A DNA stretch of 64,000 nt, from positions 1,749,926 through 1,813,925 of the forward strand of contig CAWIAG010000004.1 in assembly GCA_963834015.1 (NCBI GenBank). The letters are read 5' to 3'. Below are positions 3-26,443 of the stretch, in pieces (within the stretch, counting starts at the first letter, position 1; each line of letters begins with the position of its first letter). The stretch comes from an uncultured Ignavibacteriales bacterium. Lineage in GTDB: Bacteria; Bacteroidota; Ignavibacteria; Ignavibacteriales; Ignavibacteriaceae. The position numbers were made by a program, and so were the translations under genes. Under the pieces are notes generated by a model. That model was given only the letters and a program-made list of their open reading frames with translations, had not been told where the DNA came from and ran no database searches.

Positions 3-1157
3 GGCTCATGGGCTCCCGTGCTGGCGGCATACCTGCAGAATGAACTTGGATTCAGCGGGGTTCAGGTCGGTGTTATTTATAGTTTACTACCTCTGGCAAC
101 AATTATATCGCCTTTTATCGGCGGACAGATTGCCGACCGGTATTTTTCTTCGGAAAAAGTTATTTCTGCCCTGCAATTGTGCGGCGGCGTTTTACTTCTT
201 TTTATTTCCCGCATTACGGATTATTCAACTATGATGTGGCTGATGACGCTTTACTGTTTATTGTATGCTCCTACATTAGCCCTTACAAATTCAATAGCAT
301 TTATAAATCTGAAAGATTCCGAAAAAGATTTTGGAGTGATCAGGGTTTGGGGAACAATCGGATGGATAGCTGCCGGATGGGCTTTAACAGGCTGGAGGGT
401 TTGGTTCAAAACTCCTAATGCAGCCGGGTTCGGCGGCGACCTTTTATTTCTTGCGGGAATTTTTTCTGTAATAATGGGATTGACGTCATTCTCATTGCCG
501 CATACTCCTCCTAAAAAGGAAATTACAAGTCCGTGGGCTTTTGTTGAAGCTTTTAAAATGATGAGGAACAAAAACTTCCTGATCTTTATAATTATATCCT
601 TCGTTGTAGCAACGGAACTGATGTTTTATTACCAGCTTACTTCGCCGTTCTTAGAATCTGCCCGTATTGGGCTTTCCCCGCAAAGTGTGCCGGCAGTTAT
701 GACAATAGCCCAGATGGCGGAGATTTTTGTGATGGCTTTTCTTCTGCCGCGCTTTATTAAAAAATACGGAGTAAGAAACGTGCTCGTTATCGGCGTGCTT
801 GCATGGCCGGTAAGGTATATTATTTTTGCTATCGGAACTCCCGCCTGGCTTGTGATTGCTTCCCTGGCGCTTCACGGTTTCTGCTTCGTCTTTTTCTTTA
901 CGGCGGCATTTATATACGTCGATACAGTTGCACCGCCCGGTATCCGGCACTCTGCCCAGAGCTTAATAACTTTTGCGACTTATGGAATAGGAAATTATGC
1001 GGGCGCTTTTTTTGCAGGATGGATACAGGATTATTTTACTTCTGCCGGATCGGTAAATTGGACGGGCGTTTTTCTTGTGCCGTGTGCATTGACAATTTTG
1101 TGCGCATTGGCTTTTTTGTTTTTCTTTAAAGTTGATAAATCCGTAATTAAAGTTTAA
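3..1157 (+). CDS. MFS transporter, nucleoside:H+ symporter (NupG/XapB-like) family; 5' end runs off the window
   Basis: The frame is open from nt 3 (the ORF track starts it at GTG 18). It is multi-TM and hydrophobic throughout. IRVWGTIGWIAAGW and YAPTLALTNSIAF resemble the E. coli NupG segments IRIWGTIGFI and YMPTLGLINTISY, as I recall them. Confidence 0.75.
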   Translation, partial: GSWAPVLAAYLQNELGFSGVQVGVIYSLLPLATIISPFIGGQIADRYFSSEKVISALQLCGGVLLLFISRITDYSTMMWLMTLYCLLYAPTLALTNSIAFINLKDSEKDFGVIRVWGTIGWIAAGWALTGWRVWFKTPNAAGFGGDLLFLAGIFSVIMGLTSFSLPHTPPKKEITSPWAFVEAFKMMRNKNFLIFIIISFVVATELMFYYQLTSPFLESARIGLSPQSVPAVMTIAQMAEIFVMAFLLPRFIKKYGVRNVLVIGVLAWPVRYIIFAIGTPAWLVIASLALHGFCFVFFFTAAFIYVDTVAPPGIRHSAQSLITFATYGIGNYAGAFFAGWIQDYFTSAGSVNWTGVFLVPCALTILCALAFLFFFKVDKSVIKV

Positions 1158-1191: not shown

Positions 1192-2439
1192 ATGAATAAA
1201 AAAAGAATTGGCGTCGGGATTATCGGCGCAGGCTTCAATGCCAGGTTTCATATTAAATCATGGGTGTCTGTCAGGGATGCGGATATTTTAGGGATATATG
1301 ACAGGAACCCGGAAACTGCTTCCGCCGCTGCAACGCTTGCAAAAAACCTGCGGGTGGGCGAGGCAAAAGTTTTTAAGTCGATTACTGATATGGCCGCCGA
1401 TCCGGGTATTGATGCGCTTTGGATTTGTTCGCCTAATTTTACACGCATAGAAGTGATGGAAGAAATTACTAATGCGGTTTTAACAGGTAAAGCTGATCTT
1501 ACCGGTATCTGCTGCGAAAAGCCTTTGGGAAGAAATGCAGCGGAAGCAGGAAAGATGCTTGAGCTTGTTCAAAAAACGAAACTGCTGGACGGGTATCTTG
1601 AAAACCAGCTTTTTTCTCCCGCAATTATCCGCGGCAGGGAAATTATCTGGGCAAGAGGCGCACGGTTCGCAGGCCGTCCCTACCTGGCAAGAGCGGCTGA
1701 GGAACACAGCGGCCCGCACAAACCATGGTTCTGGGAGGGAGAATTGCAGGGCGGCGGAGTTCTGAATGATATGATGTGCCATTCTGTTGAGGTTGCCAGG
1801 TTTTTATTAACGGAACCCGGTAAACCAAGGAATTCAATTACCCCGGTTAGTGTTTCCGCCCATGCAGAATGTTTAAAATGGCAGAGGCCCGGGTATGCCG
1901 AAATCCTTGCAAAAAATAGTAACGGTACAACAGATTATATAAACCGTCCGGCAGAAGATTATGCGCATGCTCTTGTTGAGTATAAGGATGAGAACGGGAA
2001 AAAACTTATCGTCGAAGCCACAACCTCATGGGCGTTTGTGGGTGCAGGTTTACGGCTGAGTATGGAATTGCTCGGGCCCGAATACTCGATGGCTGTGAAT
2101 ACTTTGGATTCGGATCTTAAACTTTTCCTGAGCAGAAATATCAAAGCGGATGCGGGTGAAGATTTAATTGAAAAGCAGAATGCGGAAAGCGGACTTATGC
2201 CCGTTGTTAGCAATGAAGAGAATACTTACGGATACGATCTTGAAAACAGGCACATGGTAAAATCATTTATTGAGGGTGTAAGGCCAAGCGAAAACTTTAG
2301 CGACGGCTTTAATGTAACGCAGCTTCTGATGACGGCATATATGAGCGCCGAACAGGGTAAAACTATCCCGTTCCCTCATCCGGATCTCCAAACTTTTATC
2401 CCTCTTGTTGCCAAAGGTAAATGGAATCCCGGGAAATGA
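1192..2439 (+). CDS. Gfo/Idh/MocA family oxidoreductase (cytoplasmic form)
   Basis: N-terminal Rossmann motif IGVGIIGAGFNARFH and the CEKPL motif typical of the family. No signal peptide. An SD-like aggaaag precedes the ATG. Confidence 0.85.
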   Translation: MNKKRIGVGIIGAGFNARFHIKSWVSVRDADILGIYDRNPETASAAATLAKNLRVGEAKVFKSITDMAADPGIDALWICSPNFTRIEVMEEITNAVLTGKADLTGICCEKPLGRNAAEAGKMLELVQKTKLLDGYLENQLFSPAIIRGREIIWARGARFAGRPYLARAAEEHSGPHKPWFWEGELQGGGVLNDMMCHSVEVARFLLTEPGKPRNSITPVSVSAHAECLKWQRPGYAEILAKNSNGTTDYINRPAEDYAHALVEYKDENGKKLIVEATTSWAFVGAGLRLSMELLGPEYSMAVNTLDSDLKLFLSRNIKADAGEDLIEKQNAESGLMPVVSNEENTYGYDLENRHMVKSFIEGVRPSENFSDGFNVTQLLMTAYMSAEQGKTIPFPHPDLQTFIPLVAKGKWNPGK

Positions 2440-2443
2440 ATAA

Positions 2444-2551
2444 TGCGAATTAACACGAATTAGGTTAATACGAATTTACACGAATTATCATTACGAATTT
2501 CCACGAATTATCATTACGAATTTCCACGAATTAGGACGAATTCACGCGAAG
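2444..2551 (+). repeat. Periodic array of about 9-10 units ending in (a/g)cgaatt, spaced 10-15 bp (array A)
   Basis: Read directly: gcgaatt, then acgaatt eight times, then a degenerate gcgaag. It starts 5 nt after the stop codon of the upstream gene. Confidence 0.9.
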
Positions 2552-2700
2552 TATCAGTAGGTGTATATTAAATTAGAGCTTTCATAAAAAATGAAATACA
2601 TTCTTAAAAAGTCCCCTCTTGGGAGGGGTGCAGGGGTGGGTCGAAGCGATTATATTTATAAAACCTCTGCAATTATTTTTATTCGTATAATGAATATACT

Positions 2701-3010
2701 GTAATGTTAGTAGGTACCCATATAAGCAGAACAATTACAAGAAATAAAAACATTACAGGTACATAATTTATCGACATGTAGAGAAGGGGCATGCCCTCCC
2801 GATAAGAAATTGGGACAGGCTGTCTTTACGATGCAATGTGTAATGTTGGAAGGCTCCCATAAAGCAGAACTTTTATAAAATATTTAACACACTACAAACG
2901 AAGTTAATACAATCTAATGTGAATTTTGTTCTAAGTCCCAGCGGGACGAAATATTTATAGCATAACAAACCCCAACAAACCTTTTCCTGAATCCCGGAGG
3001 GATGACATAA
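2701..3010 (+). repeat. Mosaic cluster of short hairpin modules, in the order X'-Y-X-Z
   Basis: X' 2701-2748, Y 2749-2833, X 2841-2880, Z 2934-3010. Each has a reverse-complement counterpart at 6451-6680, and Y has one at 9444-9511. Stems taatgtt..aacatta, gtccc-agc-gggac and atccc-gga-gggat are visible. Confidence 0.8.
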
Positions 3011-3106
3011 TAACGGATAAGTACCATGTCTACGCCTAATTATTCACAATGCCGCTTAATAAAATTCTTAATATCCGCGTAACTTAAATGAATTATTAAG
3101 TGTACA

Positions 3107-3304
3107 TTATTCAATCTTAATTTTCTTCTTAAAATCTTCTTCAGATATATTGGAATCTTGTTTCCTGTCTTCTATGATTTTAATACATTCATTGTCTTCA
3201 ATTATCTCAAGCATCTCTTTGTACACTTTATAATCAACAAGAACACTCTTAGGCTTGCCGCTTTTATTATAAAATATTTTCTCTCTGGTTTTTAACTCGA
3301 TCAT
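3107..3304 (-). CDS. Small antitoxin-like protein (Phd/YefM- or RelB-like), apparently orphan
   Basis: 65 aa. KPKSVLVDYKVYKEMLEIIEDNECIKIIEDRK resembles the N-terminal strand plus acidic helix of type II antitoxins. No intact toxin ORF lies downstream. Confidence 0.45.
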   Translation of the reverse strand: MIELKTREKIFYNKSGKPKSVLVDYKVYKEMLEIIEDNECIKIIEDRKQDSNISEEDFKKKIKIE

Positions 3305-3420
3305 TTTATGTCTCCTGAACTATCGGAAAAAATAATTTATTTAACCTCAAAATCAAATTATATCAATGCTATAAGCATTATGATCATAACAATCCTGAAT
3401 AACTTAAAAATAATTCTGTG

Positions 3421-3556
3421 ATTGAATTACAATGAATGACAACCGAATGACCATCGAATTACAACGAATGACCATCGAATTACAATGAATGACCATCGAA
3501 TGACAACGATTGACCATTGAATGACCATGATTAACCATCGAATGACCATGAATTAT
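3421..3556. repeat. Array of about 12 units with a 10-11 bp period, gaatgaccatc / gaattacaac (array B)
   Basis: Read directly: gaatgacaacc gaatgaccatc gaattacaac gaatgaccatc gaattacaat gaatgaccatc gaatgacaac gattgaccatt gaatgaccat gattaaccatc gaatgaccat gaatt. It lies about 50 nt past the 3' end of the GH30 gene. Confidence 0.9.
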
Positions 3557-3608
3557 GGGCTACGCTTCAGGCAATCAATTCCCCGCAATTTATTTAAAAA
3601 TAAACTAT

Positions 3609-5072
3609 TTAATACACCAGAGTCTGTATTGCGTGCGGCGGAATAGTTACTGCCGCTTCTTTTAATCCGGCGTACAGGCTATAATGTATCTCATTGCCGC
3701 TTTGATTCATTACTACCGTTGCCATCTTACCATTTGGATTTAAAAATGATGCAGTCAGCAGGGCGCTCCTGTTTGAGACGGCGCTTACTCTTCGGGCTCC
3801 CGGGCGTATGAATTTTGAGAAGTGGCCGATATAAAAATAAGATGGTGTGTAAATTAAATTACCGGTTTTTATGTCTGCATGGACAGGTGCAAAACAATAG
3901 TTGCCCACATGATTAGGACCGCCGTTTTCATCAAGAAGAATATTCCAATCCGTCCAGCCGCATGTCCCGTTATTAAGATCATTAATCATTGAGCGGCCGT
4001 AACGCTCTGCATTAGGCCAATAAAAATATTTGGAGGAATCAAATTCTTCTACACAGCCTTCGGTAAATAATATGTTCTTGCAGGGATAATTCTCCCTTAC
4101 GTGTGCAATGTTATCAAACAGTGGCTCGCTGCCCGTCCACGTTTCATACCAGTGGAAACCAAGTCCCCATGCGTATTTTGCGGCGGCGGAATCGGAATAA
4201 ATTACATCAGCCCAATGATTTGCAAAATCCCTGTTATGATCCCAGATTATAATTTTTTTATCCCCAAGGCCGTGATTTTCCATTGCCGGGCCTAAATAGT
4301 TTTTCAGGAAGTCTCTTTCTTCTTCAGCGGTGTAATTACATGATTCAAAACTCTGTACTGCCAATGGTTCATTCTGAATGGTAATTCCCCAAACGGGAAT
4401 ACCCTCCGCCGCATAGGCTTTAATAAATTTTGTAAAGTAATCAGCCCATGATTGGTAGTATTCCGGTAAAAGTTTGCCGCCTTTTAACATGCTTTTATTG
4501 TCCTTCATAAATGCAGGCGGGCTCCACGGGCTGGCGAAGATTGAAATTTCTCCCCCCGCTTTTTCTATTGCCTGTTTGATCAAAGGAATGCGGAATTGTT
4601 TATCATGCTCAATATTAAAGGTTTTCAGTTCTTTATCTTTCGCAGTAACGTAGGTATAGCTCTCGCTGCTGAAATCGCAGCTATTAATGTTTGTACGCAT
4701 CAGTGAATAGCCAATGCCGTTCTGTTTATCGTAATAAGCATTTAATAGTTCCTGCTGTTTATCCGTGGGTAATTTTGCAAAGACTTCCGCAGCAGCATCT
4801 GTAACTGCGCCTCCTATACCAAGAATTTCCTGGAACTGTTTCCCGGGATTTACAAATACGGCGGTTTCAGTTTCAAGAGGCGGGCGAGCTTGTGTAAAAT
4901 CTAAAACGGAAGTTTTGGTAAGCCGTAAGTTTGTACTGTCCGCAGTTGTATAAACAATTATGTTTTCCCATTCGGCAGAGAATTGCTGCTGTGCAAAGAG
5001 CTGCTGAATAATTGATGAACACAGGATCAGCAGGAAAAGGGCCGGGAGAAGGTGGTAGGGGTGTTTTAACAT
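3609..5072 (-). CDS. Glycoside hydrolase family 30 (glucosylceramidase-like), secreted
   Basis: N-terminal signal peptide. GIGGAVTDAAAE, then WGITIQNEP (acid/base Glu context) and ILFTEGCVE (nucleophile Glu context), comparable to the GBA motifs ENEP and SEAC. Confidence 0.85.
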   Translation of the reverse strand: MLKHPYHLLPALFLLILCSSIIQQLFAQQQFSAEWENIIVYTTADSTNLRLTKTSVLDFTQARPPLETETAVFVNPGKQFQEILGIGGAVTDAAAEVFAKLPTDKQQELLNAYYDKQNGIGYSLMRTNINSCDFSSESYTYVTAKDKELKTFNIEHDKQFRIPLIKQAIEKAGGEISIFASPWSPPAFMKDNKSMLKGGKLLPEYYQSWADYFTKFIKAYAAEGIPVWGITIQNEPLAVQSFESCNYTAEEERDFLKNYLGPAMENHGLGDKKIIIWDHNRDFANHWADVIYSDSAAAKYAWGLGFHWYETWTGSEPLFDNIAHVRENYPCKNILFTEGCVEEFDSSKYFYWPNAERYGRSMINDLNNGTCGWTDWNILLDENGGPNHVGNYCFAPVHADIKTGNLIYTPSYFYIGHFSKFIRPGARRVSAVSNRSALLTASFLNPNGKMATVVMNQSGNEIHYSLYAGLKEAAVTIPPHAIQTLVY

Positions 5073-5103
5073 TGTTTAGCTTTCGTTATTGAATTAAATA
5101 ATA

Positions 5104-5205
5104 TGCGAACTAGAATTAATACGAATTTACAATAATACGAATTTCCACGAATTATCTTTACGAATTTTCACGAATTAGGACGAATTTACACGAAGTAGAT
5201 TATGT
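5104..5205 (+). repeat. acgaatt periodic array (array C)
   Basis: gcgaac, then acgaatt six times, then acgaag, with 10-14 bp spacing. It sits between the 3' end of brnA and the 5' end of the GH30 gene. Confidence 0.85.
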
Positions 5206-5318
5206 TCGGTGTAGAAGACGGGGCATGCCCTGTCTTTACGGGAGATACGTGAAAAAATTAAAGATGATATAACAATAAAAAATTAGTATGTGATGCAGCA
5301 GGTTGTTAAAGGAAGATA

Positions 5319-5528
5319 CTATCGCCAATGTATATTAGGTTTCCTGTTTTTTTCAGCGCATTCTCTTAGGTACATATTAATTAAATTTTGATAAGAGATA
5401 TCGGTTTCTGAAGCTAATTTTTTAAAATATTCCACCGTGTCATTCTCTATACGAATTGATATTTGCTTCTTGAGTTTCTTTATATAAGGATTACTAGACG
5501 ATTTTGAAAAATCATATTCTTTCTTCAT
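5319..5528 (-). CDS. brnA: BrnA antitoxin (CopG/RHH-like)
   Basis: MKKEYDFSKSSSNPYIKKLKKQISIRIENDTVEYFKKLASETDISYQNLINMYLRECA matches the BrnA pattern. I prefer the ATG at 5528, which leaves one unpaired nt (5529) between it and the brnT stop codon. The track ORF extends to 5630, and ATG 5543 is another possible start. Confidence 0.85.
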   Translation of the reverse strand: MKKEYDFSKSSSNPYIKKLKKQISIRIENDTVEYFKKLASETDISYQNLINMYLRECAEKNRKPNIHWR

Positions 5529-5529
5529 T

Positions 5530-5820
5530 TTATTTTGCCTCATCGTAATATTTACTTTCAGATTTTGTTGCTTTTCTTGCGGAAATAATCCGGATAATTT
5601 CATCATTCTCTTTATAATTATGCACCACAATAAGAAGATTTAAATTATTAGAAATACCTAAAATAATATATCGTTCTTCTTTGATTGAATGATCAGGATC
5701 AGATATAAGTCGTGCATTGCCATCAAAAAACACGGTCTTAGCTTCTTCAAAAGAAATTTTATGCTTTTTTATATTCGCAAGATTTTTATTTTGATTCCAT
5801 TGGAAACGAATATTATCCAT
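5530..5820 (-). CDS. brnT: BrnT toxin (DUF497 ribonuclease toxin)
   Basis: FQWNQNKNLANIKKHKISFEEAKTVFFD ... IRIISARKATKSE is the canonical BrnT/DUF497 pattern. The toxin-first gene order is typical of brnTA. Confidence 0.9.
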   Translation of the reverse strand: MDNIRFQWNQNKNLANIKKHKISFEEAKTVFFDGNARLISDPDHSIKEERYIILGISNNLNLLIVVHNYKENDEIIRIISARKATKSESKYYDEAK

Positions 5821-6263
5821 AATGATAATATAATGATATTATAATTATCTACAAAATTCTTATAAAAGGAAATTTATAGAATATGAATTCGCGTTAATGC
5901 AAATTTACACGAATAAGGACGAACCTGCATGCCGGCAGGCAGGTTTGAGCAAAGGGAAGAGGAGTGCTTGTCCCAAAGTGCTGAAATGTTTGATGATGGA
6001 TAAAATGGCGTACAATGAGTGATTCATTTCAACAGCAATTCGATCCGCCGTTCTCCAGCCTCCGGTCTCCGTTCTGCTGTCTCCGGTCTCCTCTTTATTT
6101 ACAAACAATATTAAAAATAAATAAATAAATTACACTGCTAATTGCCCTGCGATTATTCAAATTTAAAAACTCTGGTAAAAAAATCAGGAGATTTTAAAAA
6201 TTAAAATATTTAAATTTGCACCCGTGTTATTTACATTAAAATATATGCTAACGATTTCTTGTC

Positions 6264-6320
6264 CATTCGTGAAAATTCGTCCTAATTCGTGAAAATTCGT
6301 ATTAATATAAATTCGTATTC
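6264..6320 (-). repeat. acgaatt periodic array in inverted orientation (array E)
   Basis: On the + strand: cattcgt, then aattcgt four times, spaced 10-17 bp. Confidence 0.8.
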
Positions 6321-6450
6321 CTTTTAAGGAAATTATATCTTTGACATTCTGTTTGACGTATTGAAATACATACGGTGAAGTGTCTTGAATAAATTTTTAT
6401 ATGGGAAATCTGTTTTATTTTTTGCGGCCTACCGATAATTTTACATCTTA

Positions 6451-6680
6451 CATCGTAAAGACAGCCTGCCTATCCCACTTGCCCCGCAGAGTCGGTGGCC
6501 CCGTCTCTACAAAGTGATAAATTATGTACATGTAATGTTTATCATTATTTATAAAAGTTCTTATTTTATGGGAGCCTTCCAACATTATACTTAAGTCCTA
6601 TGTCACCCCGCCGGGGTTCAGGAGAAGGTTTGTTGGTGAGATTTTTTTGCTATAAACATTTCACCCCTCCGGGGTTTGGA
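6451..6680 (-). repeat. Mosaic hairpin-module cluster: reverse complements of modules Y, X and Z
   Basis: rc(Y) 6451-6541, rc(X) 6545-6588, rc(Z) 6596-6680. By-eye alignment to 2749-3010 gives roughly three quarters identity. A more degenerate Z-like copy follows at about 6860-6990. Confidence 0.8.
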
Positions 6681-7357
6681 TATCGTTAATTCAGGTTTGT
6701 GAAATAAGGAGGGAAATAATTATCAATGTTATTGCTAACATTACAATTTTAAGGTAGCTGAATAACGGCAGAGCCGTGAAATGCTGGTAGAATTAAAAGG
6801 AAAAGACAAACACAAGTTAGCATCGTAGATGCGGCATGGTGAATTTGATTACGAAACACCTGTCACCGGAATGCGGTTTAGGAAAGGTTTGATTAGGAAT
6901 TATTGCTACACCCATGCCGTCCAGATTGGACTTAGCGCAACGGATCCGGTTAATGAATCGCTGCATTTCGGAGTGAGTTCTCAGCCCTTTTTAGGCGAAA
7001 AAATTACCAGGATTTTATTAAATTTTAAATTTTAAAAAAACTCATGTTAGCTCCAATAGCATAAACTCTTGATTTTATTAACTTTAAATTTTTATTTTCC
7101 TTGAGCTAAGCTGGATTAAATGATTTGTTTTTAATAAGTTAAATGATTTAACACCTCTTGTTTTTTTTCGCTTTTTTAAAGGTTAAATCCTTTGTATTCA
7201 ATAACTTAATTGATTTTTTAGTGTCAATTTAGGCCCTTTTTATGATATCATTTTGGCATTTTTGGTGTTATTTCCCGTCATATTATGATATTTTTATCTG
7301 TATATATTATAAGGGTTTAGCAAACAGCATAAACCGGAAATTCAAAAAAATAATCCA

Positions 7358-8218
7358 ATGTTAATGAATCAAAATATTCAGGAAATAATCGGACAAAGAT
7401 ATTCATGCCGTTTTTACAACCATGAACCTATTCAGAAAGTGCATCAGCAGGAACTCAGAAAGTTCCTGGAGACTCTGCACACCGGCCCTTTGGGAACACA
7501 TGTTCGTCTTGAACTTGCCGCCGCTGAACCGGAAGAGAGACAATCTTTAAAAGGACTAGGCACATACGGCGTTATCAGGAATCCTGCAGGTTTTATTATA
7601 GGTACGGTAGAACAGGCGCCAGGGGACCTTGAAGATTACGGATACGTTCTTGAGCATGCAATTCTTACAGCTACCGGTATTGGTTTAGGTACCTGCTGGC
7701 TTGGCGGCCCTATTACAAAAAGCAGTTTTGCAAAAAAAATTTCTTTACGGGATAATGAAACAATGCCTGCCGTAGCTGCCGCAGGATATATCGAAGAGAG
7801 AAAAGGAAAAGACGGTGAGATTATTAACTACAGAAGACCGGCCCGCTTGCCTTCAGAACAGTTATTCTTCGCTGATGCATTCGGCAGTGCGTTAATTATG
7901 GAAACTGCAGGCGAATATTCGCAGCCTCTTGAAATGGTCCGTATAGCCCCGTCAGCTTCCAACAAACAGCCGTGGAGAATTGTCAGGATAAATAATGCGT
8001 GGCATTTTTTTCTTCGGCGGACAAGAGGGTACGGCAAAGGGACAGTGTTATTCAGAATTCTCAGGCTCGCCGATCTCCAGCGTGTTGATATGGGTATTGC
8101 CATGTGCCATTTTGAACTCACCGCCCGTGAGCTTGGATTAAACGGCGTTTGGGTTATCGATGATCCAAAAATTCAAATGCCCGGAGGAACGGAATACACG
8201 GCAACGTGGAAAGTTTAA
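7358..8218 (+). CDS. Nitroreductase-family protein
   Basis: RYSCRFY near the N-terminus and RIAPSASNKQPWRIV are typical of the nitroreductase fold. Confidence 0.75.
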   Translation: MLMNQNIQEIIGQRYSCRFYNHEPIQKVHQQELRKFLETLHTGPLGTHVRLELAAAEPEERQSLKGLGTYGVIRNPAGFIIGTVEQAPGDLEDYGYVLEHAILTATGIGLGTCWLGGPITKSSFAKKISLRDNETMPAVAAAGYIEERKGKDGEIINYRRPARLPSEQLFFADAFGSALIMETAGEYSQPLEMVRIAPSASNKQPWRIVRINNAWHFFLRRTRGYGKGTVLFRILRLADLQRVDMGIAMCHFELTARELGLNGVWVIDDPKIQMPGGTEYTATWKV

Positions 8219-8220
8219 GT

Positions 8221-8260
8221 GCGGATTCACACGATTTGTTAATACGAATTTGCATTAATC
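8221..8260 (+). repeat. Short acgaatt-type array (array F)
   Basis: gcggattcacacgatttgttaatacgaatttgcattaatc begins 3 nt after the stop codon, in the same position as array A. Confidence 0.6.
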
Positions 8261-8336
8261 TTTTCCAGGTATTATTTTACGGCTACAAAAGTAGCCATAT
8301 GGTTACAATAGTATCCATAAACAAAACTGATGAAAA

Positions 8337-8945
8337 ATGATTGTTAACAAATTATTAGAAAAATTATTTAGTGCGCCAAGTAATATTTCTGTAATCAGGG
8401 TGCTGAATGAGAGAGTTACGGGAATAACAGGCAGAGAGACTGCAAGGCTTACCAATCTTACACATCGTTCGGCTCTAAAAGCCCTTACTAATCTGGAAGA
8501 GCTTGGCGTTGTATCTCGCATAACAGGCGGTAGAGATCATATATTTACTCTTAACAGGCAGAAATATATTTCTAAAGAGATCATCTACCCGATTTTTGAA
8601 GCTGAAAAAAAATTTAATACAGCTATCAGATCTTCTTTAAAAAAACAATTATCAAAGTTAACTGATAGCATTATTGTATATGGTAGCGTTGCCCGTAAGG
8701 AAGAAACAATATCAAGTGATTATGATGTCTGCATTGTTTATAACGGGCATTTAAATGATATTGAAAATATTGTCTTAAAACTAAGGGACCGGCTTCATGA
8801 CCAATATTCAATTCAACTTGCTCCGATTTATATCAGAACCGCCGAATTTAAAAAACGTGCACGTAAAAAACTACCCCCGGTGAATGATATAGTTAATGAA
8901 GGAGTGGTAATAAGCGGTAAATCAATTCATAAGCTTCTGCAATGA
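8337..8945 (+). CDS. Winged-HTH plus minimal nucleotidyltransferase (MNT-like antitoxin candidate)
   Basis: N-terminal wHTH-like segment (ETARLTNLTHRSALKALTNLEELGVVSR). The NTase motif is YGSVARKEETISSDYDVCIVY (GS..R...DxD). Confidence 0.7.
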   Translation: MIVNKLLEKLFSAPSNISVIRVLNERVTGITGRETARLTNLTHRSALKALTNLEELGVVSRITGGRDHIFTLNRQKYISKEIIYPIFEAEKKFNTAIRSSLKKQLSKLTDSIIVYGSVARKEETISSDYDVCIVYNGHLNDIENIVLKLRDRLHDQYSIQLAPIYIRTAEFKKRARKKLPPVNDIVNEGVVISGKSIHKLLQ

Positions 8946-9343
8946 AACAACCCGTAAAAAAGATTGATGTAAATAAATATTTGGATTTTATAAAAGTTTC
9001 CGATGACTTTTCAAACGGAAGTGAATCTGCATATACATTCGAATACTATAATGCCGCCGGAGTTTTAGTAATTCATGCTGCAATTGCGCTTGCTGATGCT
9101 GTTACAATCAAACTATCCGGCAAAAAATGCAGCGGTGAAAGTCATTATGATATTATAGACTTATTAAGACTTGTCACTCCACCATCGCAGAATAAAAATA
9201 AATCATTAGATCAGTTCAAAAAATTGATTGATCATAAAAATAAAGTTTCATACTATGGTGATATCTATTTTAAGAAAGATGTAGATAAATTATTAAATCA
9301 TTTCAAAAGGTTTAAATCCTGGGCCGGTATGTTGCTAATGTAA
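8942..9343 (+). CDS. HEPN-like helical protein, partner of the nucleotidyltransferase
   Basis: Its ATGA start overlaps the upstream gene by 4 nt. 133 aa and helical. GESHYDIIDLL and LIDHKNKVSYYG resemble PF05168-type HEPN helices, but I find no canonical Rx4-6H motif. Confidence 0.5.
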   Translation: MKQPVKKIDVNKYLDFIKVSDDFSNGSESAYTFEYYNAAGVLVIHAAIALADAVTIKLSGKKCSGESHYDIIDLLRLVTPPSQNKNKSLDQFKKLIDHKNKVSYYGDIYFKKDVDKLLNHFKRFKSWAGMLLM

Positions 9344-9443
9344 AATACTATCTTTAATTGCATTAAGTTCTAAAAGAGATATTGACTTGATTTTACTATA
9401 ATTTAAACCGGCAGGTTTGTAAGAAAGGCATGAGCTTATTTTA

Positions 9444-9511
9444 AGCGTAAAGACATCCTGTTTGTCCCGCTTGTCCCGCCAAGGCGGTGGTCCGATTCCT
9501 TATCGGGAGGG
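9444..9511 (-). repeat. Third copy of module Y (cgtaaagaca...ggtgg..ccg...cttatcgggaggg)
   Basis: By-eye alignment to 6451-6515 and to the reverse complement of 2776-2833. Confidence 0.65.
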
Positions 9512-9598
9512 TTAGGCGAATCACGAATTTTTTTCCCCTCTCTTTATTAGGAGAGAGGGTGATTTTGTATCGTCATGAAACAATAAATGTGTGAATGA

Positions 9599-10267
9599 TT
9601 AATTCAAAAGCTCCATGGGAAATGGTTTGCCATGTCCAGGGTACACCATATTTATTTTTAGCTCGTGAAGTTTTTCTAAACTTTTTGTCAGTTCATCATG
9701 ATCCTGAATTATATTTGCCGATTCCGGTTTTTTGTTATTAACAAGTGTATCTCCTGAAAACAAATCGCCCGCGCCGGTTAATATGCCGATTGAGCCTTTT
9801 GTGTGTCCGGGTAAATGTATAACTTTTGCATTGAACCCATATTCCTGCAGGCTCTGGCCGTCATGCAGATAGATATCCGGTGTAAACTGATCCGTATTTA
9901 TTTTTTTCTTCTTTAATTTTCTTAAAAAAATAATAATTGCAAACATGATTTTTCTTGAAAGGTGTTTTACTTTTCTTTTTCCGGGAGAGCCTGATTGTAT
10001 GATTGAATAATCATCTTTGTGCATTGCTATAACGGCATTATATTTTTCCTTAAGTTTTTTACAATTGCCGGAATGATCCCTGTCCCCGTGTGTTAAAATT
10101 ACCAGTTTTAATTTGCCGGGAAGGCAGCCGTTGGAAATTAATTCTTTTTCCAATTTTCCCCATTGCATGGGTAATCCGGTATCTATTAAAATAAAGCCCG
10201 TGCCCAGCTTAAAAAGATAAGCGTTTACAAAGGAGAGTGGAATGGTTTTTATATTTTCGTCAATCAT
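9599..10267 (-). CDS. MBL-fold metallo-hydrolase
   Basis: ILIDTG, then LTHGDRDHSG (HxDxDH-like variant of the MBL HxHxDH motif), HLPGHTKGS, and PGHG at the C-terminus. Confidence 0.8.
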   Translation of the reverse strand: MIDENIKTIPLSFVNAYLFKLGTGFILIDTGLPMQWGKLEKELISNGCLPGKLKLVILTHGDRDHSGNCKKLKEKYNAVIAMHKDDYSIIQSGSPGKRKVKHLSRKIMFAIIIFLRKLKKKKINTDQFTPDIYLHDGQSLQEYGFNAKVIHLPGHTKGSIGILTGAGDLFSGDTLVNNKKPESANIIQDHDELTKSLEKLHELKINMVYPGHGKPFPMELLN

Positions 10268-10290
10268 ATTTTTATCCTCGGCTTTTATGA

Positions 10291-13062
10291 TTAATTATTT
10301 ATAACGAAGTTATATTTGCCGGATCCGATGTGCAATATAATTTTTCCGCCGGCTGACTGCACCATCTGTATTTCTTTTATCTGCTCTACAGGTTTGCCGC
10401 TTTCAAAGATATTGTCTTTTGAACCTGCCGGCATGAAAACATCCGCCGTGGTGTTGGGCGGAACCTGGATGTTAAGCTGTGTTGAATTATTATCAACTGT
10501 CCAGCCGGATGAAATCATCCCGTATATGGAGTGATATTCTGCTTTGGCATATTTTAACTGTTTTGTTATGTGCGGATCTATAATAATGTTTTTGTAACCG
10601 GGGCTGCCGCTGTCTATATCTATTCCGGCAACACAACTGTAAAGCCATTTGCCGACAGCTCCGTATGCGTAATGATTAAATGAATTCATGCCGTCACTCT
10701 GAAAAGACCCGTTTCTTTTTATTCCGTCCCAGCGTTCCCAAATTGTGGTGGCGCCTTTTGTTACGGGATAAAGCCATGAAGGATATTCTTTTCTGAAGAG
10801 AAGCATATATGCTAAATCCGTGTAACCGTTATCTGTAAGTACCCGGCTGATCCTTGAAGCGCCGAGGAACCCTGTTGTAAGATGCCCGAAATTATTAACA
10901 TCATCCGCCAGGCGTTTAGCCGCCGGTGCAATCATGTCCGCAGGAATAATATTGAAATCCAGAGCCAGTGCATAAGCGGTCTGCGTGTTGGATGCAAGTC
11001 TTCCGTTCTGAGTTATAAATTCTTTTTGAAAGGCTTCTTTAATATTTTTCATTAACGCGGTGAATTCTTGTGCATCCTGTTCATTGCCGAGTATTGAAGC
11101 AATTTTCTGCATAAGGTCTGCGGCATGATAAAAGTATGCAGTGCCTATCAGGTCCTTATCGGTTGTTGCTCCCGGATAGTCTGACCTGTCGGTTGCAAAC
11201 GCAAGCCAATCGCCGAAGCCGACATTTTTATTCCATAAGTAGGAATCGCCGGCAATTTTCTTTATGTAATTAAGCCAGCCTTTCATACAACTGTATTGGG
11301 TTTGAAGTATCCGGGTATCGCCGTAGTTTTGATAGACCGTCCATGGTACGATAATGGCAGCATCGGCCCAGCCTGCTGCACCTCCGCCGTCATTGCCCAG
11401 GATATTTGGAATTACGTGCGGTATCCTGCCGTCTTCAAGCTGATCCGCAGTAAAGTCTTTCATCCACTTGGTGTAGAAAGATGCGGCATCCATATTAAAA
11501 CATGCGGTTGGTGAGAAGACTTCTGCGTCTCCCGTCCATCCTAATCTTTCATCTCGCTGGGGGCAGTCGGTTGGCACATCTACAAAGTTGCCTCTTAATC
11601 CCCACTGGATATTTTTTTGAAGCCGGTTAATTAATGAATCGGAGCACTCAAAATTGCCGGATGGGGTCATATCCGAATGAATCACCATACCGGTTATATC
11701 ATTTAGAGAAATATCGCCGGGATAATTTGTTACAGCCACGTACCTGAAACCCTGGAATGTAAAATGCGGTTGAAATACTTCTGCACCGCTGCCTTTAAAA
11801 GTATATTCAACATTTTGTTTTGCTTTGCGGAGATTTGCCGTATAAATGTTTCCTTCTTTATTCAGTACCTCTGCATGCCGCAGGGTTATTTTATCGCCGG
11901 CATTGCCTTTTAATTTAAATTGAATCCAGCCTACCATATTTTGCCCCATGTCGAAAACCAAATCGCCGTTGGGTGTCTTAAATTCTTTAGCGGGCTTTAT
12001 TGTTTGTGTTATTCTAACGGCAGGCCCTTCGGTTGCTGTAAGAATATCTTTATTGTAATCTTTAACAGTTGTGCCGCTCCAGCCGCTGTCGTCATAGCCA
12101 GGCTTATCCCAGCCGTCTTTTTCCAGCCGTGCATCATAAGTTTCACCGTCATAAATTTCCGACATTAATATCGGGCCGGTGGATGATTTCCATTCCGGGC
12201 CGGATTTAATTATTTCCGATGTCCCGTCCGTATAAGTGATATTGATTTGAAGAAGGAGGCCGGTTTTATCTCCAAAATTATTTGCCTTATAATCCCATGT
12301 TAAAGGTCCTTTGTACCAGCCGTCGCCGAGGATTACGCCGAATGCGTTTTTACCTGACTGGATATTCCGCGTTACATCGTAAACCTGGTATTGAAGGCGT
12401 TTGTTATAGCTGGTCCAGCCGGGAGTGAAAAACCTGTTGCCGATTTTTTCACCGTTGATATGAAACTCATAAAGGCCATGGCATGTTACATAGGCTCTTG
12501 CAGATTTAACGGATTTATGGATTTCAATTTCATCCCTGAGCATAGGGCAGGGGCTGTAATTATTATCGTTTAGTTTCAACTGAGGCTCAATCCATTCAGC
12601 CTGCCAGTCAGATGATTGTAGCAGACCCATTTCCCAGAATGAAACTTCGCTCCATCCGGATTCGTCACCTTCGTTATCCAGGATTTTAACCTGCCAGAAT
12701 ACACGCTGCGCGGATTGCAAAGCGGCGCCGTTATATACAATCTGGTTGGACTGGCCGGAAATAATTTTACCGCTGTCCCATAAAAGATTTTTACCGCTTA
12801 ATAAATCTTTTTCAGACAGTGATGCGCGTACCATGTAAGCGCTCTGCATAATGTTCCTTTTAGAGGAAACAATTTCCCAGCTAAGCCGGGGCTGTTTATC
12901 GCCGATGCCGACGGGATTGAAGATGTAATCCGTCCTGAGATCGGTCACTTTTAATAAGTCAGATGCCATAACAGGATGAAAAAATAGTATAATTTGTAAT
13001 AAAACAAATAATAAAAAGCTGCGGCAGGTATTCCGCGGGAGTAGTCCTGTCATCTGTATCAT
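10291..13062 (-). CDS. Alpha-L-rhamnosidase, glycoside hydrolase family 78, secreted
   Basis: LKVTDLRTDYIFNPVGIGDKQPRLSWEI...QSAYMVRAS is the classic Bac_rhamnosid_N start, with DCPQRDERLGWTGDA in the catalytic domain. I moved the start to ATG 13062 (MIQMTGLL..., signal peptide). The track ORF extends to 13161. Confidence 0.9.
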   Translation of the reverse strand: MIQMTGLLPRNTCRSFLLFVLLQIILFFHPVMASDLLKVTDLRTDYIFNPVGIGDKQPRLSWEIVSSKRNIMQSAYMVRASLSEKDLLSGKNLLWDSGKIISGQSNQIVYNGAALQSAQRVFWQVKILDNEGDESGWSEVSFWEMGLLQSSDWQAEWIEPQLKLNDNNYSPCPMLRDEIEIHKSVKSARAYVTCHGLYEFHINGEKIGNRFFTPGWTSYNKRLQYQVYDVTRNIQSGKNAFGVILGDGWYKGPLTWDYKANNFGDKTGLLLQINITYTDGTSEIIKSGPEWKSSTGPILMSEIYDGETYDARLEKDGWDKPGYDDSGWSGTTVKDYNKDILTATEGPAVRITQTIKPAKEFKTPNGDLVFDMGQNMVGWIQFKLKGNAGDKITLRHAEVLNKEGNIYTANLRKAKQNVEYTFKGSGAEVFQPHFTFQGFRYVAVTNYPGDISLNDITGMVIHSDMTPSGNFECSDSLINRLQKNIQWGLRGNFVDVPTDCPQRDERLGWTGDAEVFSPTACFNMDAASFYTKWMKDFTADQLEDGRIPHVIPNILGNDGGGAAGWADAAIIVPWTVYQNYGDTRILQTQYSCMKGWLNYIKKIAGDSYLWNKNVGFGDWLAFATDRSDYPGATTDKDLIGTAYFYHAADLMQKIASILGNEQDAQEFTALMKNIKEAFQKEFITQNGRLASNTQTAYALALDFNIIPADMIAPAAKRLADDVNNFGHLTTGFLGASRISRVLTDNGYTDLAYMLLFRKEYPSWLYPVTKGATTIWERWDGIKRNGSFQSDGMNSFNHYAYGAVGKWLYSCVAGIDIDSGSPGYKNIIIDPHITKQLKYAKAEYHSIYGMISSGWTVDNNSTQLNIQVPPNTTADVFMPAGSKDNIFESGKPVEQIKEIQMVQSAGGKIILHIGSGKYNFVINN

Positions 13063-13452
13063 GTTGTTGTTCCATTCGTATTTTAAAAATAATTGTTTGC
13101 ATAGAAATACAGTTAAGGTAATATAATTTTTTACGTTCCAGATAATGTTGTAAAACTTCATATTAAAAATAAGCAGTAATTTATTAATTATATTGGCTTC
13201 AGTCGCATGGGCGGAACTATGAAATATCTCTCTGCCAATAATAAGGAATTTTTATTAGCTTTGTATGAGGCTTTGACCAGTTAAGGCAGGTAAAAAAAAA
13301 TAGATTACTATAATACGGTTAGCTTTATTGCATTTAAGCCTGATAAGAGTGAAACATTAAATTAGCGAAGCCTGCCCGTCTGCAGGCAGATGGTTTTCGA
13401 CTTACAAGATAATAATATTAATAATAATTGAATTTAATCCTGGAGATTAAAT

Positions 13453-15363: not shown

Positions 15364-15830
15364 AAATATCAGGATTTTATGTAATATAAACAATTGCGCA
15401 GGAATTATTATATAAGCCGCAATAAATTTTGTTATTCAATTTCGGCAGCTATGCGTATCTGTCTTTTATTCAAAGTATATTACTTTTAATCCTGTTTACG
15501 GAAGGTAAACTGATCCTCCGGAGGCGGACAAGTGAAAGAGTTAAGGGCAAATTTATTAGTATCATTAACAACGCGATTAATCGTGGAGTTAATGATGAAG
15601 CACCTTATAGTCTTCAACCGTTTTAAGGGTTTACGGTACACTTATAAGAAGTAAGGCAAAACAAATTATTGAATATTTGTGAATGAATTTTAACACAAAT
15701 TCTAAAAGTAGAGCTACTAAAACCATGACTGAAGAGTCAAACATTTAAAGCGCCGGGCAGATTGTAGATAAATATGAAATTTAAAATGTTTTATTTGTTA
15801 TATTCAGGAAAATATTTCTTTTATTAAATA

Positions 15831-17243: not shown

Positions 17244-17429
17244 GTTCTTACGAGACGGGATCGCATAGGGATAAACTATGCCCTGTCTTGTAAAAGGAAT
17301 GTATCTGATAGTATGCTTAAAGTTAATTATAATTCTGTTTTGCTATTGGAAGCGGTTTTAATGCAGTATTCCCGTCTTGTAATAAAGAAGTGTTTTTATT
17401 TATTTAATATTAATTACTAAATAATAATT

Positions 17430-19676: not shown

Positions 19677-19715
19677 TGGCTGATTACCCCGGTTTGAAAA
19701 AATAAAGGTAAAAAA

Positions 19716-20957: not shown

Positions 20958-21022
20958 AATATTAAAAATTGAATTATTTAGAAAATAAAATTATTTACGG
21001 TAATATGCCATTTTAATGAATT

Positions 21023-21063
21023 GTTTAAGTTCCCATGTATTGTACTTAAACACCTGTTTTTTT
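21023..21063 (+). terminator. Rho-independent terminator after the beta-helix gene
   Basis: The stem pairs gtttaagt (21023-21030) with acttaaac (21044-21051). A T7 run follows at 21057-21063. Confidence 0.6.
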
Positions 21064-21306
21064 AGATGTGTACCAGCAAACCATTAAATGAAAATTTATT
21101 TTTCATTATGAAAAATCTAAAATATTAAATATGCTCAAGTAATTATAACTTTTGTAATTGTTTTAATTTTTTGTGATTTTTATAAAATAACGACCAGAAA
21201 TAATATTAAATACCGGGATTAACTCCGTGCGGGTAATAATTCCGGCAAAACAAACAGATAAGATTTATTTATAAACTTAATTAAAGTAAGCAGTTCGGAG
21301 GAATGA

Positions 21307-22563: not shown

Positions 22564-22788
22564 ATTGATTTCACAAATAGTTTAAGATAATGAAAATATG
22601 CCGTTGATAAATTTAAAAGATACTTTCGCAGATACAGATTTAGGCGACTATGAAGCGGGGATATTAAAAGCAGTTGATACGTTGTGCATCAGATCAATTT
22701 TAAGAGTTAAGAAGAAAGTATAAAAGAAGCCCTATGGAAAAAATTCATTTGTTCAATGGCAATTTTAAAAGTATAAATGAGGTTAACC

Positions 22789-24284: not shown

Positions 24285-24347
24285 AAATACATAAAAACCC
24301 GAAAAGCGATTTTAAATAGCCTGATTTTAAAATAATACGGATATAAA

Positions 24348-26317: not shown

Positions 26318-26443
26318 AAGACCGGGTGTTGAAGCAATCTTATTTATAGCATACATTATTAGAGAGAATTTTAAATTTTAAATACTATATCTCTATTTAT
26401 TAAACAATTATTAAATAATGAAAAAACAGATATAAAAATTATA

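Follow-up and report, generated by a model that had tools for sequence, protein, structure and literature searches.

Mosaic clusters of short non-coding modules and CGAAT tandem arrays at probable accessory-cassette joints in an Ignavibacteriaceae genome

The window analysed here is a 64-kb stretch of an Ignavibacteriaceae MAG; in all, our reading covers about 73 kb of the source genome and roughly 100 kb from relatives. Downstream of an oxidoreductase gene it carries the following genes.

3107-3304, minus strand: orphan RelB-like antitoxin (Pfam PF18506), 27.8% GC, ParE partner missing
3609-5072, minus strand: GH30 glycoside hydrolase, 42.8% GC, native-like, kept in all three lineages
5319-5820, minus strand: BrnA (5319-5528) and BrnT (5530-5820), by Pfam; toxin-antitoxin (TA) cassette of about 28% GC
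8337-9343, plus strand: nucleotidyltransferase and HEPN pair (NTase-HEPN), by Pfam, 31-35% GC

The GC content of the TA and NTase-HEPN genes is 28-35% (28-31% for RelB, BrnA, BrnT and HEPN), and that of GH30, a nitroreductase and the oxidoreductase is 43-47%. In other genomes, RelB homologues of at least 90% identity all have a ParE gene following them, a pairing that occurs in at least two further gene contexts. DNA homology to these RelB-ParE loci ends at 3101, 6 nt beyond the RelB stop codon; a ParE remnant was looked for at the RelB locus and none was found, and the space expected for the ParE gene is occupied by a cluster of repeats. A RelB gene lacking ParE, together with the premature stop codons found in RelB and in BrnT of a sister strain, resembles the orphan antitoxins and decaying type II TA systems of genomic islands; it differs from them in that the toxin gene is cleanly gone from so close to the RelB stop and that mosaic repeats stand in its space.

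This left cluster and a second, oppositely oriented right cluster are built of modules that we designate W, X, Y, Z and Q, which also occur singly.

2613-2628, minus strand: T1, GC hairpin CCCCTC-TTGG-GAGGGG, resembling a minus-strand terminator
2627-2699, plus strand: module W, abutting X'
2698-2757, plus strand: module X', about 60 nt, with 9-bp inverted termini TGTAATGTT/AACATTACA
2769-2835, plus strand: left module Y, an inner hairpin nested within the outer stem GTAGAGA.../...TCTTTAC
2837-2897, plus strand: module X, with a 23-nt exact core common to the right X
2930-3009, plus strand: left module Z, consisting of a hairpin, GAAATATTTATAGCA, the linker CCAACAAACCTTTTCCTGA and a hairpin
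5212-5240, plus strand: minimal Y, 29-nt imperfect palindrome GTAGAAGACGGGGCATGCCCTGTCTTTAC
5919-5962, plus strand: module Q, hairpin CCTGC-ATGCCG-GCAGG and tail
6449-6519, minus strand: right module Y, found by blastn and profile scan
6531-6591, minus strand: right module X, found by blastn and profile scan
6598-6746, minus strand: right module Z, comprising Z at 6598-6680, its tail as far as 6726 and, at 6724-6746, the mini palindrome AATGTTA-TTGC-TAACATT
9446-9511, minus strand: Y3, incomplete Y at the NTase-HEPN cassette's right junction
9536-9559, plus strand: T2, terminator-like hairpin CCCTCTCT-N8-AGAGAGGG, then a T-rich tail

We identified repeat pairs by searching the window with each cluster in blastn, and a separate repeat-pair search was concordant. 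An earlier note on this DNA had read X, Y and Z of the left cluster as recurring in reverse complement on the right, and we find that 2698-3009 indeed recurs at 6449-6680 with significant blastn matches of 72-82% identity: 2702-2843 against the reverse complement of 6441-6587 (72%, 147 nt, E 1.6e-19), 2930-3009 against that of 6599-6680 (78%, 82 nt, E 2e-13) and 2838-2896 against that of 6531-6590 (82%, 60 nt, E 5e-10). X' and X form a direct pair (2700-2757 and 2839-2896, 76%, E 8e-5), and no exact inverted match between the two clusters exceeds the 23-nt X core. The same note's non-mirrored module order (X'-Y-X-Z on the left, rcY-rcX-rcZ on the right) is confirmed, as are the further Y copy that it placed at 9444-9511 (blastn 9446-9493, 79%, 48 nt, E 2.5e-7), the X ends TGTAATGTT...AACATTACA, the 9-mer of which is seen seven times against 0.89 expected, with five of the seven inside clusters, the Z hairpins GTCCC-AGC-GGGAC and ACCCC-GCC-GGGGT, and the peptide reading AINISPLRG, in frame at about 6640-6670; a 48-aa pseudo-peptide query gave no match. 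The clusters are larger than first described, the left one beginning at about 2613 with T1 and W and the right one reaching about 6746, and minimal Y, the Q hairpin module and CGAAT arrays are additional elements. Four Logan contigs terminate at 2629, at the edge of T1. A third Z hairpin, ACCCC-TCC-GGGGT, is present, and the Z hairpin stems covary, varying among copies yet staying complementary (GTCCC/GGGAC, ACCCC/GGGGT, GCCCC/GGGGC, GTCCCAC/GTGGGAC and ATCCCTCC/GGAGGGT).

Phased CGAAT tandem arrays, found at six gene joints, represent a second class of repeat, and the clusters lie among them.

2446-2553, plus strand: A1, CGAAT array, 23-nt unit, about 3.7 copies, directly after the oxidoreductase stop codon
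3423-3555, plus strand: A2, GAATGACCATC/CGAAT array, 21-nt unit, about 5.7 copies, in the RelB/GH30 gap
5111-5198, plus strand: A3, CGAAT array upstream of GH30 and left-hand junction of the BrnTA indel
5889-5918, plus strand: A4, short CGAAT array, direct repeat of A3 on the opposite side of BrnTA
6265-6320, minus strand: A5, CGAAT array in inverted orientation
8222-8259, plus strand: A6, degenerate CGAAT array, left junction of NTase-HEPN cassette

Within the window, every strong tandem array falls in 2446-6306, and profile scans confine W-, X-, Y-, Z- and Q-type modules to 2.6-9.5 kb, so the ubiquity at most intergenic regions that the earlier note had counted against its own idea is not what the window displays. 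Relatives whose oxidoreductase is 87-89% identical (L007, L009 and L010, roughly 63 kb) yielded no module by profile scan. Viral control loci likewise yielded none except weak A-array and X profile matches, the loci having entered the set via these very pattern matches (short A-array, X). The X core pattern has no match in any other GTDB species representative.

Strain comparisons reveal that the arrays and modules co-locate with breakpoints. The copy number of A1 varies among strains, and short-read contigs L003 and L004 terminate within it, at 2508; A2 is mostly replaced in L161 and carries a 42-nt indel in L189. Segment 5175-6058, containing BrnTA, which direct arrays (A3, A4) bracket, is missing in L189 and L190, with an array at the junction; these two come from two samples, are 99.96% identical to each other and begin at the same base. 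A block homologous to 8250-9408 has moved in L189 to the other side of an MBL gene, its junctions being at A6 and Y3. Identity jumps from 92.2% over 1-2439 to 99.5% over 2554-3122 in L012 at A1 (Fisher p 2e-14) and from 98.6% over 3297-3560 to 87.9% over 3561-5072 in L189 at A2 (p 2e-8), both jumps resting on short-read metagenome contigs that may be chimeric joins via shared arrays. Altogether, six of eight strain breakpoints coincide with arrays or modules, a coincidence that is only suggestive, because cassette breakpoints must be intergenic and repeats take up about 40% of the intergenic sequence in the islet. The positions of breakpoints and identity jumps suggest that arrays and modules are recombination end points.

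From the opposed orientation of the clusters, the earlier note had proposed that they promote inversion of the enclosed segment or else mark the borders of an acquired islet; neither proposal was borne out as stated. Flipping of the 3.4-kb segment by homologous recombination or a site-specific invertase could draw on inverted arms with alignments of 60-147 nt and on A3 and A5, which match each other better in inverted orientation (36 nt at 5159-5194, 97% complementary to 6266-6301, with an exact run of 29 nt). However, the arms of the clusters are only 72-82% identical, with no exact run longer than the 23 nt of the X core, their module order is not mirrored, the sister strain's right X arm shows a deletion of 10 nt along with additional substitutions, and the window encodes no recombinase. 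No inversion is seen, because the six assemblies spanning both clusters, which represent two strain lineages, are all collinear; the third lineage has the same orientation at GH30/nitroreductase. We regard inversion as exceedingly improbable. The clusters are also very unlikely to bound a single 3.4-kb insertion with RelB, GH30 and BrnTA as its cargo, an idea in keeping with the abundance of low-GC TA genes in the region and with more distant relatives, in which a PAS histidine kinase comes right after the oxidoreductase and none of these genes is present. Against it, 3010-6450 is composite: GH30 has native GC and is present in all three lineages, whereas L189 lacks BrnTA alone, and it is mostly CGAAT arrays, rather than the two clusters, that bound the variable pieces. 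A high-identity block at about 2554-3560 spans the left cluster, which is therefore contained in the block and is not its end, and variable DNA extends past the right cluster, with, among others, an 18-kb indel and the relocated NTase-HEPN block.

The claim that these are independently shuffling REP-like modules, by comparison, gained support, given that modules are combined differently at two other loci of related metagenomic genomes. At L178/L173 an array, GC hairpins, W, X and then Z lie in a convergent intergenic region, with a second Z in addition; the W copy (L178 5132-5203, 82% identical) adjoins an X there too, and L178 5334-5468 aligns to the right Z and its tail (6598-6726). The order at L174/L183 is X-Z-X. 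In L189 a Y that is 91% identical sits between two Q modules (7789-8051), a non-homologous site, and the right cluster consists of only half a Z, with X and Y absent.

Copies at non-homologous sites of related genomes would also be expected of non-autonomous elements, with Y the REP of a RAYT-type Y1 transposase or X a MITE mobilised by a transposase whose gene lies elsewhere in the genome, and clusters formed by nested insertion. REPs tagged with GTAG, and the mosaics into which they cluster, have been described, and G-T pairs in the stem, as in minimal Y, are noted for many REPs (PMC3733652). Minimal Y, palindromic over its 29 nt, has GTAG as its first bases, as in REP/RAYT (REPIN) systems, and full Y resembles it with nested internal hairpins; X, at about 60 nt, with 9-bp terminal inverted repeats and at several loci, resembles MITEs such as the Correia element. 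Yet filled and empty sites compared reveal no target-site duplication, for X or otherwise, GTAG is paired within the stem rather than forming an unpaired tag, and short-read contigs pass straight through a cluster. Copies are few, far fewer in the DNA read than in REP/RAYT systems, and 72-91% alike (76-86% for X, with no near-identical recent copies found), and the window has no RAYT gene, nor any transposase (Y1 or other), integrase or recombinase gene. Transposition of this kind is possible but doubtful.

We consider it unlikely that the modules are functional 3'-UTR or 5'-UTR RNA hairpins of cassette transcripts, serving as stabilisers, terminators or processing sites. Terminator-like hairpins stand just past two clusters (minus-strand T1 after RelB with the cluster, T2 after HEPN with Y3), all four Y copies are equally oriented relative to the presumed neighbouring transcript, and the covariation of Z hairpins would fit an RNA. 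One Y strand folds better than the other (-26.9 versus -15.0 kcal/mol for the right copy) because the stem contains G-T pairs, but the better-folding strand is opposite to the presumed transcripts. Moreover, whole clusters fold no better than shuffled sequences (z -1.1 to +0.3), an Rfam search gave no match, the right X is decaying in the sister strain, and the right cluster is located between divergent genes, in a 1.5-kb spacer, rather than at a 3' end. We give next to no credence to an integron-like cassette array with attC-type sites; small TA cassettes are parted by structured repeats and are present, absent or relocated among strains, but the 5' end of X carries GTT and its 3' end AAC, opposite to attC R''/R', both strands carry genes, the window encodes no integrase, and the joints are tandem direct repeats instead of single imperfect palindromes.

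The closest known systems are the BIMEs of Enterobacteria, in which REP palindromic units form extragenic clusters (PMC3733652), and the NIMEs of Neisseria, in which dRS3 inverted repeats flank RS elements and arrays are associated with end points of recombination and flanking-gene variation; as of 2007 NIMEs had not been seen outside Neisseria (PMC1797815). Like BIMEs, our clusters combine short imperfect palindromes with a few conserved linker motifs in variable order and orientation, often between convergent genes and in strain-variable copy number. Unlike them, they have no sequence relation to BIMEs, appear in few copies in a few hot spots rather than hundreds genome-wide, come with no RAYT gene seen, and consist of longer modules (45-85 nt) with AT-rich non-palindromic parts, accompanied by CGAAT arrays. 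As in NIMEs, short GC-rich inverted repeats alternate with AT-richer spacers of 50-150 nt in intergenic arrays whose positions are syntenic and whose unit content varies among strains. The dRS3 consensus ATTCCC-N8-GGGAAT was searched for and is absent, stems here are 5-8 bp with loops of 3-4 nt in simple copies and longer, nested ones in others, and the phylum is another; for the present repeats no counterpart of a dRS3-targeting phage or recombinase is known.

Given these comparisons, we think it probable that the clusters are BIME/NIME-like local pile-ups of lineage-specific short non-coding modules and CGAAT arrays at accessory-cassette joints, and that the 3.4 kb between them is not one unit. 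No enzyme able to move or recombine the modules was found in the window, and how they spread we can only infer. W, X, Y, Z and Q would constitute a family of modules, each 45-85 nt long and based on either short inverted termini or a small GC-rich hairpin, which with the phased arrays would occupy the joints of small accessory cassettes in a recombination-prone stretch of about 2.4-9.6 kb. Single modules are present in some strains and absent from others, copies occur at other loci and individual copies decay, as expected if modules are gained, lost and recombined one at a time. The opposed orientation of the two clusters would be incidental, and the DNA between them is a composite of an orphan RelB-like antitoxin, a native-GC GH30 and a low-GC BrnTA indel. 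Arrays and modules may thus be the recombination end points at which cassettes are gained, lost and exchanged, or the scars of such events.

The repeats are best explained as a lineage-specific mosaic family of intergenic elements that sit where accessory cassettes meet, in a stretch prone to recombination. An NCBI MAG (GCA_049580805.1) has a contig, JBAUQR010000077.1, identical to the first 12.4 kb of the window, which contain this stretch, and long contigs of ENA metagenome assemblies match these 12.4 kb at 99.9% identity. Pfam assigns the following genes here, the remainder of the window holding genes for sugar utilisation, two-component, PKD and S8-peptidase proteins:

18-1157, plus strand, MFS nucleoside symporter
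1192-2439, plus strand, GFO/IDH/MocA oxidoreductase
3107-3304, minus strand, RelB-like antitoxin
3609-5072, minus strand, GH30
5319-5820, minus strand, BrnA and BrnT
7358-8218, plus strand, TM1586-type nitroreductase
8337-9343, plus strand, nucleotidyltransferase and HEPN pair (NTase-HEPN)
9599-10267, minus strand, metallo-beta-lactamase-fold protein (MBL)

Pfam scans of the 37 ORFs of at least 65 aa taken as genes reveal no transposase, integrase or Y1/HUH (Y1_Tnp) protein in the window, and a scan of the window for tRNA and tmRNA found none. Two DUF1670/HTH genes stand side by side (57460-59105) between very large S8-peptidase/FG-GAP proteins (52770-57404, 59625-63053). A palindrome with a 15-bp stem, AATCATTAACACCGC-N8-GCGGTGTTAATGATT (41635-41672), separates a histidine kinase gene from a PKD gene; a related copy is found at 15560-15600, and the palindrome is conserved in a divergent relative (L189 13129-13166). 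A separate GC-rich 15-bp palindrome occupies 41377-41410.

The earlier note described modules X, Y and Z at the left of a 3.4-kb segment that recur as reverse complements at its right, and blastn of each cluster against the window bears this out. Three inverted matches join the clusters: X-Y (2702-2843 against 6441-6587, 72% over 147 nt, E 1.6e-19), Z (2930-3009 against 6599-6680, 78% over 82 nt, E 2e-13) and X (2838-2896 against 6531-6590, 82% over 60 nt, E 5e-10). The direct pair X'/X is 76% identical over 59 nt, the further Y piece that had been noticed is present at 9446-9493 (79% over 48 nt), and a repeat-pair search of the window concurs. The order of modules had also been read correctly (left X'-Y-X-Z, right rcY-rcX-rcZ), as had the termini of X, TGTAATGTT...AACATTACA, whose 9-mer occurs 7 times in the window against 0.89 expected, 5 of the 7 inside the clusters. 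The Z hairpins with a 5-bp stem and a 3-nt loop are there, and AINISPLRG is readable across the right Z; a protein search with the 48-aa pseudo-peptide translated across Z gave no candidates. Beyond these modules, the left cluster starts with a GC hairpin (T1, 2613-2628) followed by module W (2627-2699), of which an 82% identical copy adjoins another X at a different locus. The right Z has a tail reaching 6726, followed by a mini palindrome of X termini (6724-6746). A minimal Y of 29 nt, GTAGAAGACGGGGCATGCCCTGTCTTTAC, is located at 5212-5240 and a hairpin module, Q, at 5919-5962. The latter falls within a 1.5-kb spacer (5821-7357) between the divergent BrnT and nitroreductase genes, in which six-frame reading found no gene remnant. 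A 21-nt repeat in two copies (6048-6091) and a weak, degenerate Z-like stretch (about 6883-6940) are also seen there. Given these repeats and the lack of any coding remnant, the spacer may be a graveyard of decayed modules.

Module Z consists of a hairpin, GAAAT(A/G)TTTATAGCA, a linker of about 25 nt with CCTTCTCCTGA at its end, and a second hairpin, the whole linker between the hairpins being 45 nt. Its stems vary in sequence and length, yet complementarity is kept in five independent copies (GTCCC/GGGAC, ACCCC/GGGGT, GCCCC/GGGGC, GTCCCAC/GTGGGAC and ATCCCTCC/GGAGGGT), and the loops of some copies hold nested palindromes. The outer stem of Y is invariant, GTAGAGA(C)GGGGC...GGCTGTCTTTAC, and full copies measure 60-70 nt with nested hairpins. 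Because this stem has G-T pairs, Y folds better on one strand; for the right Y the two strands give -26.9 versus -15.0 kcal/mol, with z scores of -3.4 versus -1.7. That the modules are RNA elements is possible but rather unlikely: whole-cluster folds are no better than shuffles, and Rfam gives no relevant match, neither for the whole window at the gathering threshold nor for 2400-9700 at E<=5.

A second class of repeats consists of tandem arrays with units of 20-23 nt, in which CGAAT returns at intervals of 10-13 nt. The arrays, A1 to A6 in order, are:

2446-2553, CGAAT array A1
3423-3555, CGAAT array A2
5111-5198, CGAAT array A3
5889-5918, CGAAT array A4
6265-6320, CGAAT array A5 (inverted)
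8222-8259, CGAAT array A6

Almost all gene joints of the stretch have such an array, and the remainder of the 64 kb has none; all strong tandem arrays of the window fall within 2446-6306. The best inverted repeat of the region is not formed by X, Y and Z; it is an array pair (5159-5194/6266-6301) of 36 nt, 97% identical, with an exact run of 29 nt. Array copy number differs among strains, and A2 is mostly replaced in the sister strain. A reading of the arrays as tandem RNA antitoxin repeats of a type III TA system, which would have ToxN-like toxins next to them, fails, as the downstream genes encode RelB, GH30 and BrnT. The CGAAT unit has 24 matches in a scan of viral contigs, most in coding DNA; four viral contigs (L137, L138, L140, L149) have what look like similar direct and inverted arrays of CACGAAT. 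A second type of array, likewise at gene joints, is seen at another locus in a contig of a related genome (L178), where 41-nt tandem arrays of 5.7-13.8 copies flank successive genes (1-235, 2900-3470, 4820-5023, 9794-10357), the unit containing the palindrome GCACAGAT-TATCA-ATCTGTGC.

Do the two clusters act as a pair? It had been suggested that, being inverted, they could promote inversion of the DNA between them. Six assemblies span both clusters (the NCBI MAG, ENA ERZ25039479, ERZ25039529 and ERZ27249851, and JGI Ga0181529_10000346 and Ga0181520_10000643). All six, drawn from two strain lineages (one at 100% identity, the other at ~97%), are collinear. The relative orientation of GH30 and nitroreductase is unchanged in a third, more divergent lineage (L189/L190). 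With one orientation in all these assemblies and no recombinase gene in the window, the evidence is against an invertible segment of the inverton or shufflon kind. The longest exact match common to both clusters is 23 bases, and the right X of the sister strain has lost 10 nt of one terminus and gained extra substitutions. The opposite orientation of the two clusters is best regarded as incidental.

The other proposal, that the clusters border one acquired islet, fails its defining tests: the enclosed RelB, GH30 and BrnTA do not form one unit. The RelB-like protein has 65 aa, and each homologue at least 90% identical to it is followed by an 86-aa ParE gene abutting the antitoxin stop (10 of the 10 loci shown, among them at least two different gene contexts). 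DNA homology of the window to these loci begins 80 nt upstream of RelB and runs out 6 nt beyond its stop codon, at 3101. The toxin gene that directly follows the antitoxin in a RelB-ParE type II module is missing here, tblastn revealing no ParE remnant in the window; its expected place, about 2847-3107, now holds 90 nt outside the named modules, then Z and X. GH30 has a native-like GC content of 42.8%, versus 27.8-28.6% for RelB, BrnA and BrnT, and is present in all three lineages. The BrnTA segment (5175-6058) is missing from L189/L190, where a single array is joined directly to DNA homologous to that beyond 5918; BrnTA of the window is thus bracketed by direct array copies, A3 and A4. In the sister strain (97-98% identical; L161/L192-L194) premature stops interrupt RelB (codon 33) and BrnT (codon 28), indicating that both TA genes are decaying there.

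Variability continues beyond the enclosed segment. In L189 the NTase-HEPN block (8250-9408) is found across the MBL gene from its place in the window, the junctions falling at A6 and at the partial Y copy (Y3). L189 also lacks an 18-kb block of sugar-utilisation genes (10520-28224), retaining a 119-nt remnant of the rhamnosidase 3' end. Upstream of the window, a cassette of AbiEii and DUF1828 (L002 5023-8290) is present in the window's strain and missing from the sister strain; its junctions carry palindromic repeats of other kinds, TGCACAAA...TTTGTGCA (L002 1405-1479, 5010-5040, 5254-5309) and GTGAGnTATAAAnTCAC (L002 ~5463, 5543, 8345). Synteny with relatives whose oxidoreductase is 87-89% identical is uninformative, as only the MFS-oxidoreductase pair is common.

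Comparison among strains reveals abrupt changes of identity at the arrays. One contig (L012) matches the window at 92.2% over 1-2439 and at 99.5% over 2554-3122, the switch falling in A1 (Fisher p 2e-14). L189/L190, two contigs from separate metagenomes with 99.96% identity between them, match at 98.6% over 3297-3560 and at 87.9% over 3561-5072, switching at the end of A2 (p 2e-8). At face value, the block from A1 to A2 (T1-W-X'-Y-X-Z and RelB) is near-identical in genomes that differ by 8-13% elsewhere, which would mean recent exchange bounded by the arrays. The same jumps could, however, be chimeric joins through shared arrays: L012, L189 and L190 were assembled from short reads, and each stops within the block (at 3122 and at 3297-3299). 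Of eight breakpoints observed in the stretch, six coincide with arrays or modules, which is suggestive only, because repeats fill about 40% of its intergenic DNA.

The window was scanned with profile HMMs for the modules (W, X, Y, Z, Q) and for the array unit, and all matches lie within 2.6-9.5 kb; likewise, no module match was found by blastn in the 8.8 kb upstream of the window, or by profile HMMs in ~63 kb from the relatives with an 87-89% identical oxidoreductase. Two full and two partial copies of Y are present in ~73 kb of genome, all inside 7 kb; L189 has one in 13.9 kb. Logan (short-read) contigs pass straight through the left cluster, which argues that high-copy near-identical copies do not exist. 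The X core is absent from all other GTDB species representatives, giving two chance matches only, which lie within coding sequence of unrelated taxa. In metagenomes, a scan for this core found true copies at two other loci. The first (L178/L173) reads T9SS BNR-repeat gene, tandem array, GC hairpins, W, X, Z and convergent peptidase gene, the same module order as in the left cluster, with a second Z upstream; the second (L174/L183) reads X-Z-X. In L189, a Y 91% identical to the left Y is placed between two Q modules, at a site where the window has a gene (29695-30804) within a variable segment (29535-31097). In viral contigs the Y core has 106 matches, estimated at about chance level, and the Z motifs have three chance matches. 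Judging from the profile scans, the Logan contigs and the copies at other loci, the module family is dispersed and, it appears, of low copy number; its members gather in hot spots, in a different combination at each.

To which known class does it belong? REP/RAYT (REPIN) systems have tens to thousands of extragenic copies per genome and a cognate Y1 (HUH) transposase gene flanked by repeats, but no such gene lies within the window. A REP is defined as an imperfect palindrome of 20-40 nt bearing a terminal GTAG (or CGTC) tag that is conserved and unpaired (PMC3733652). The minimal Y (5212-5240) begins with GTAG, but here the tag lies within the stem. Extragenic clusters of palindromic units and conserved linkers in variable order and orientation, as in BIMEs, are found in W-X'-Y-X-Z, rc(Y)-rc(X)-rc(Z), W-X...Z (L178) and X-Z-X (L174), and these different combinations uphold the view of the earlier note that REP-like modules are being shuffled. 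In its dispersal, hot spots and site-specific combinations the family matches the BIME/NIME pattern (PMC3733652, PMC1797815). The dRS3 repeat of NIMEs, ATTCCC-N8-GGGAAT, has no window match with at most one mismatch. NIME arrays keep syntenic positions while their unit content differs from strain to strain, with recombination end points at or near them. In this stretch unit content varies among strains, and identity jumps and indel junctions fall on arrays, in a small sample that may include assembly chimeras. X has the terminal inverted repeats of a MITE, but copies are 72-91% alike and not the many near-identical ones of MITEs; no target-site duplication was found at module borders or in the comparison of filled and empty sites. 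In an integron cassette array, attC sites have R'' (RYYYAAC) at the 5' end and R' (GTTRRRY) at the 3' end, cassettes are co-oriented and IntI is near. X has GTT 5' and AAC 3', the reverse order, genes lie on both strands and no integrase/IntI was found in the window; an attC/CALIN array is therefore rejected.

The modules could spread by a RAYT- or MITE-type transposase acting in trans, or by recombination and gene conversion; the window holds no candidate enzyme. A bolder and, in our estimate, unlikely reading is that arrays and hairpin modules are the working sites of a dedicated cassette-exchange system of Ignavibacteriota, at which a recombinase or single-strand DNA nuclease encoded elsewhere in the genome would let strains gain, lose and exchange TA and defence cassettes. 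Such a system would be a functional analogue of the role proposed for NIME/dRS3 in Neisseria, or of integron attC sites, though its sites would be built differently, from phased tandem half-sites and small hairpins.

Proteobacteria have well-described interspersed mosaic repeats (REP/BIME, NIME, Correia elements); to our knowledge such repeats are hardly described in Ignavibacteriota/FCB lineages. The element is of a known kind; in the literature searched, no description appears to exist of this family, of its phylum as a host or of its association with phased CGAAT arrays. The locus is a compact, comparable example of cassette joints (TA modules, a relocated NTase-HEPN pair) built from a small vocabulary of hairpin modules and phased arrays, and strain differences map to these joints. 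In practice, joints of this sort break short-read assemblies and may yield chimeric contigs, which calls for caution. If the association of repeats with joints is causal, the repeats would help explain the turnover of small defence and TA cassettes in these genomes.
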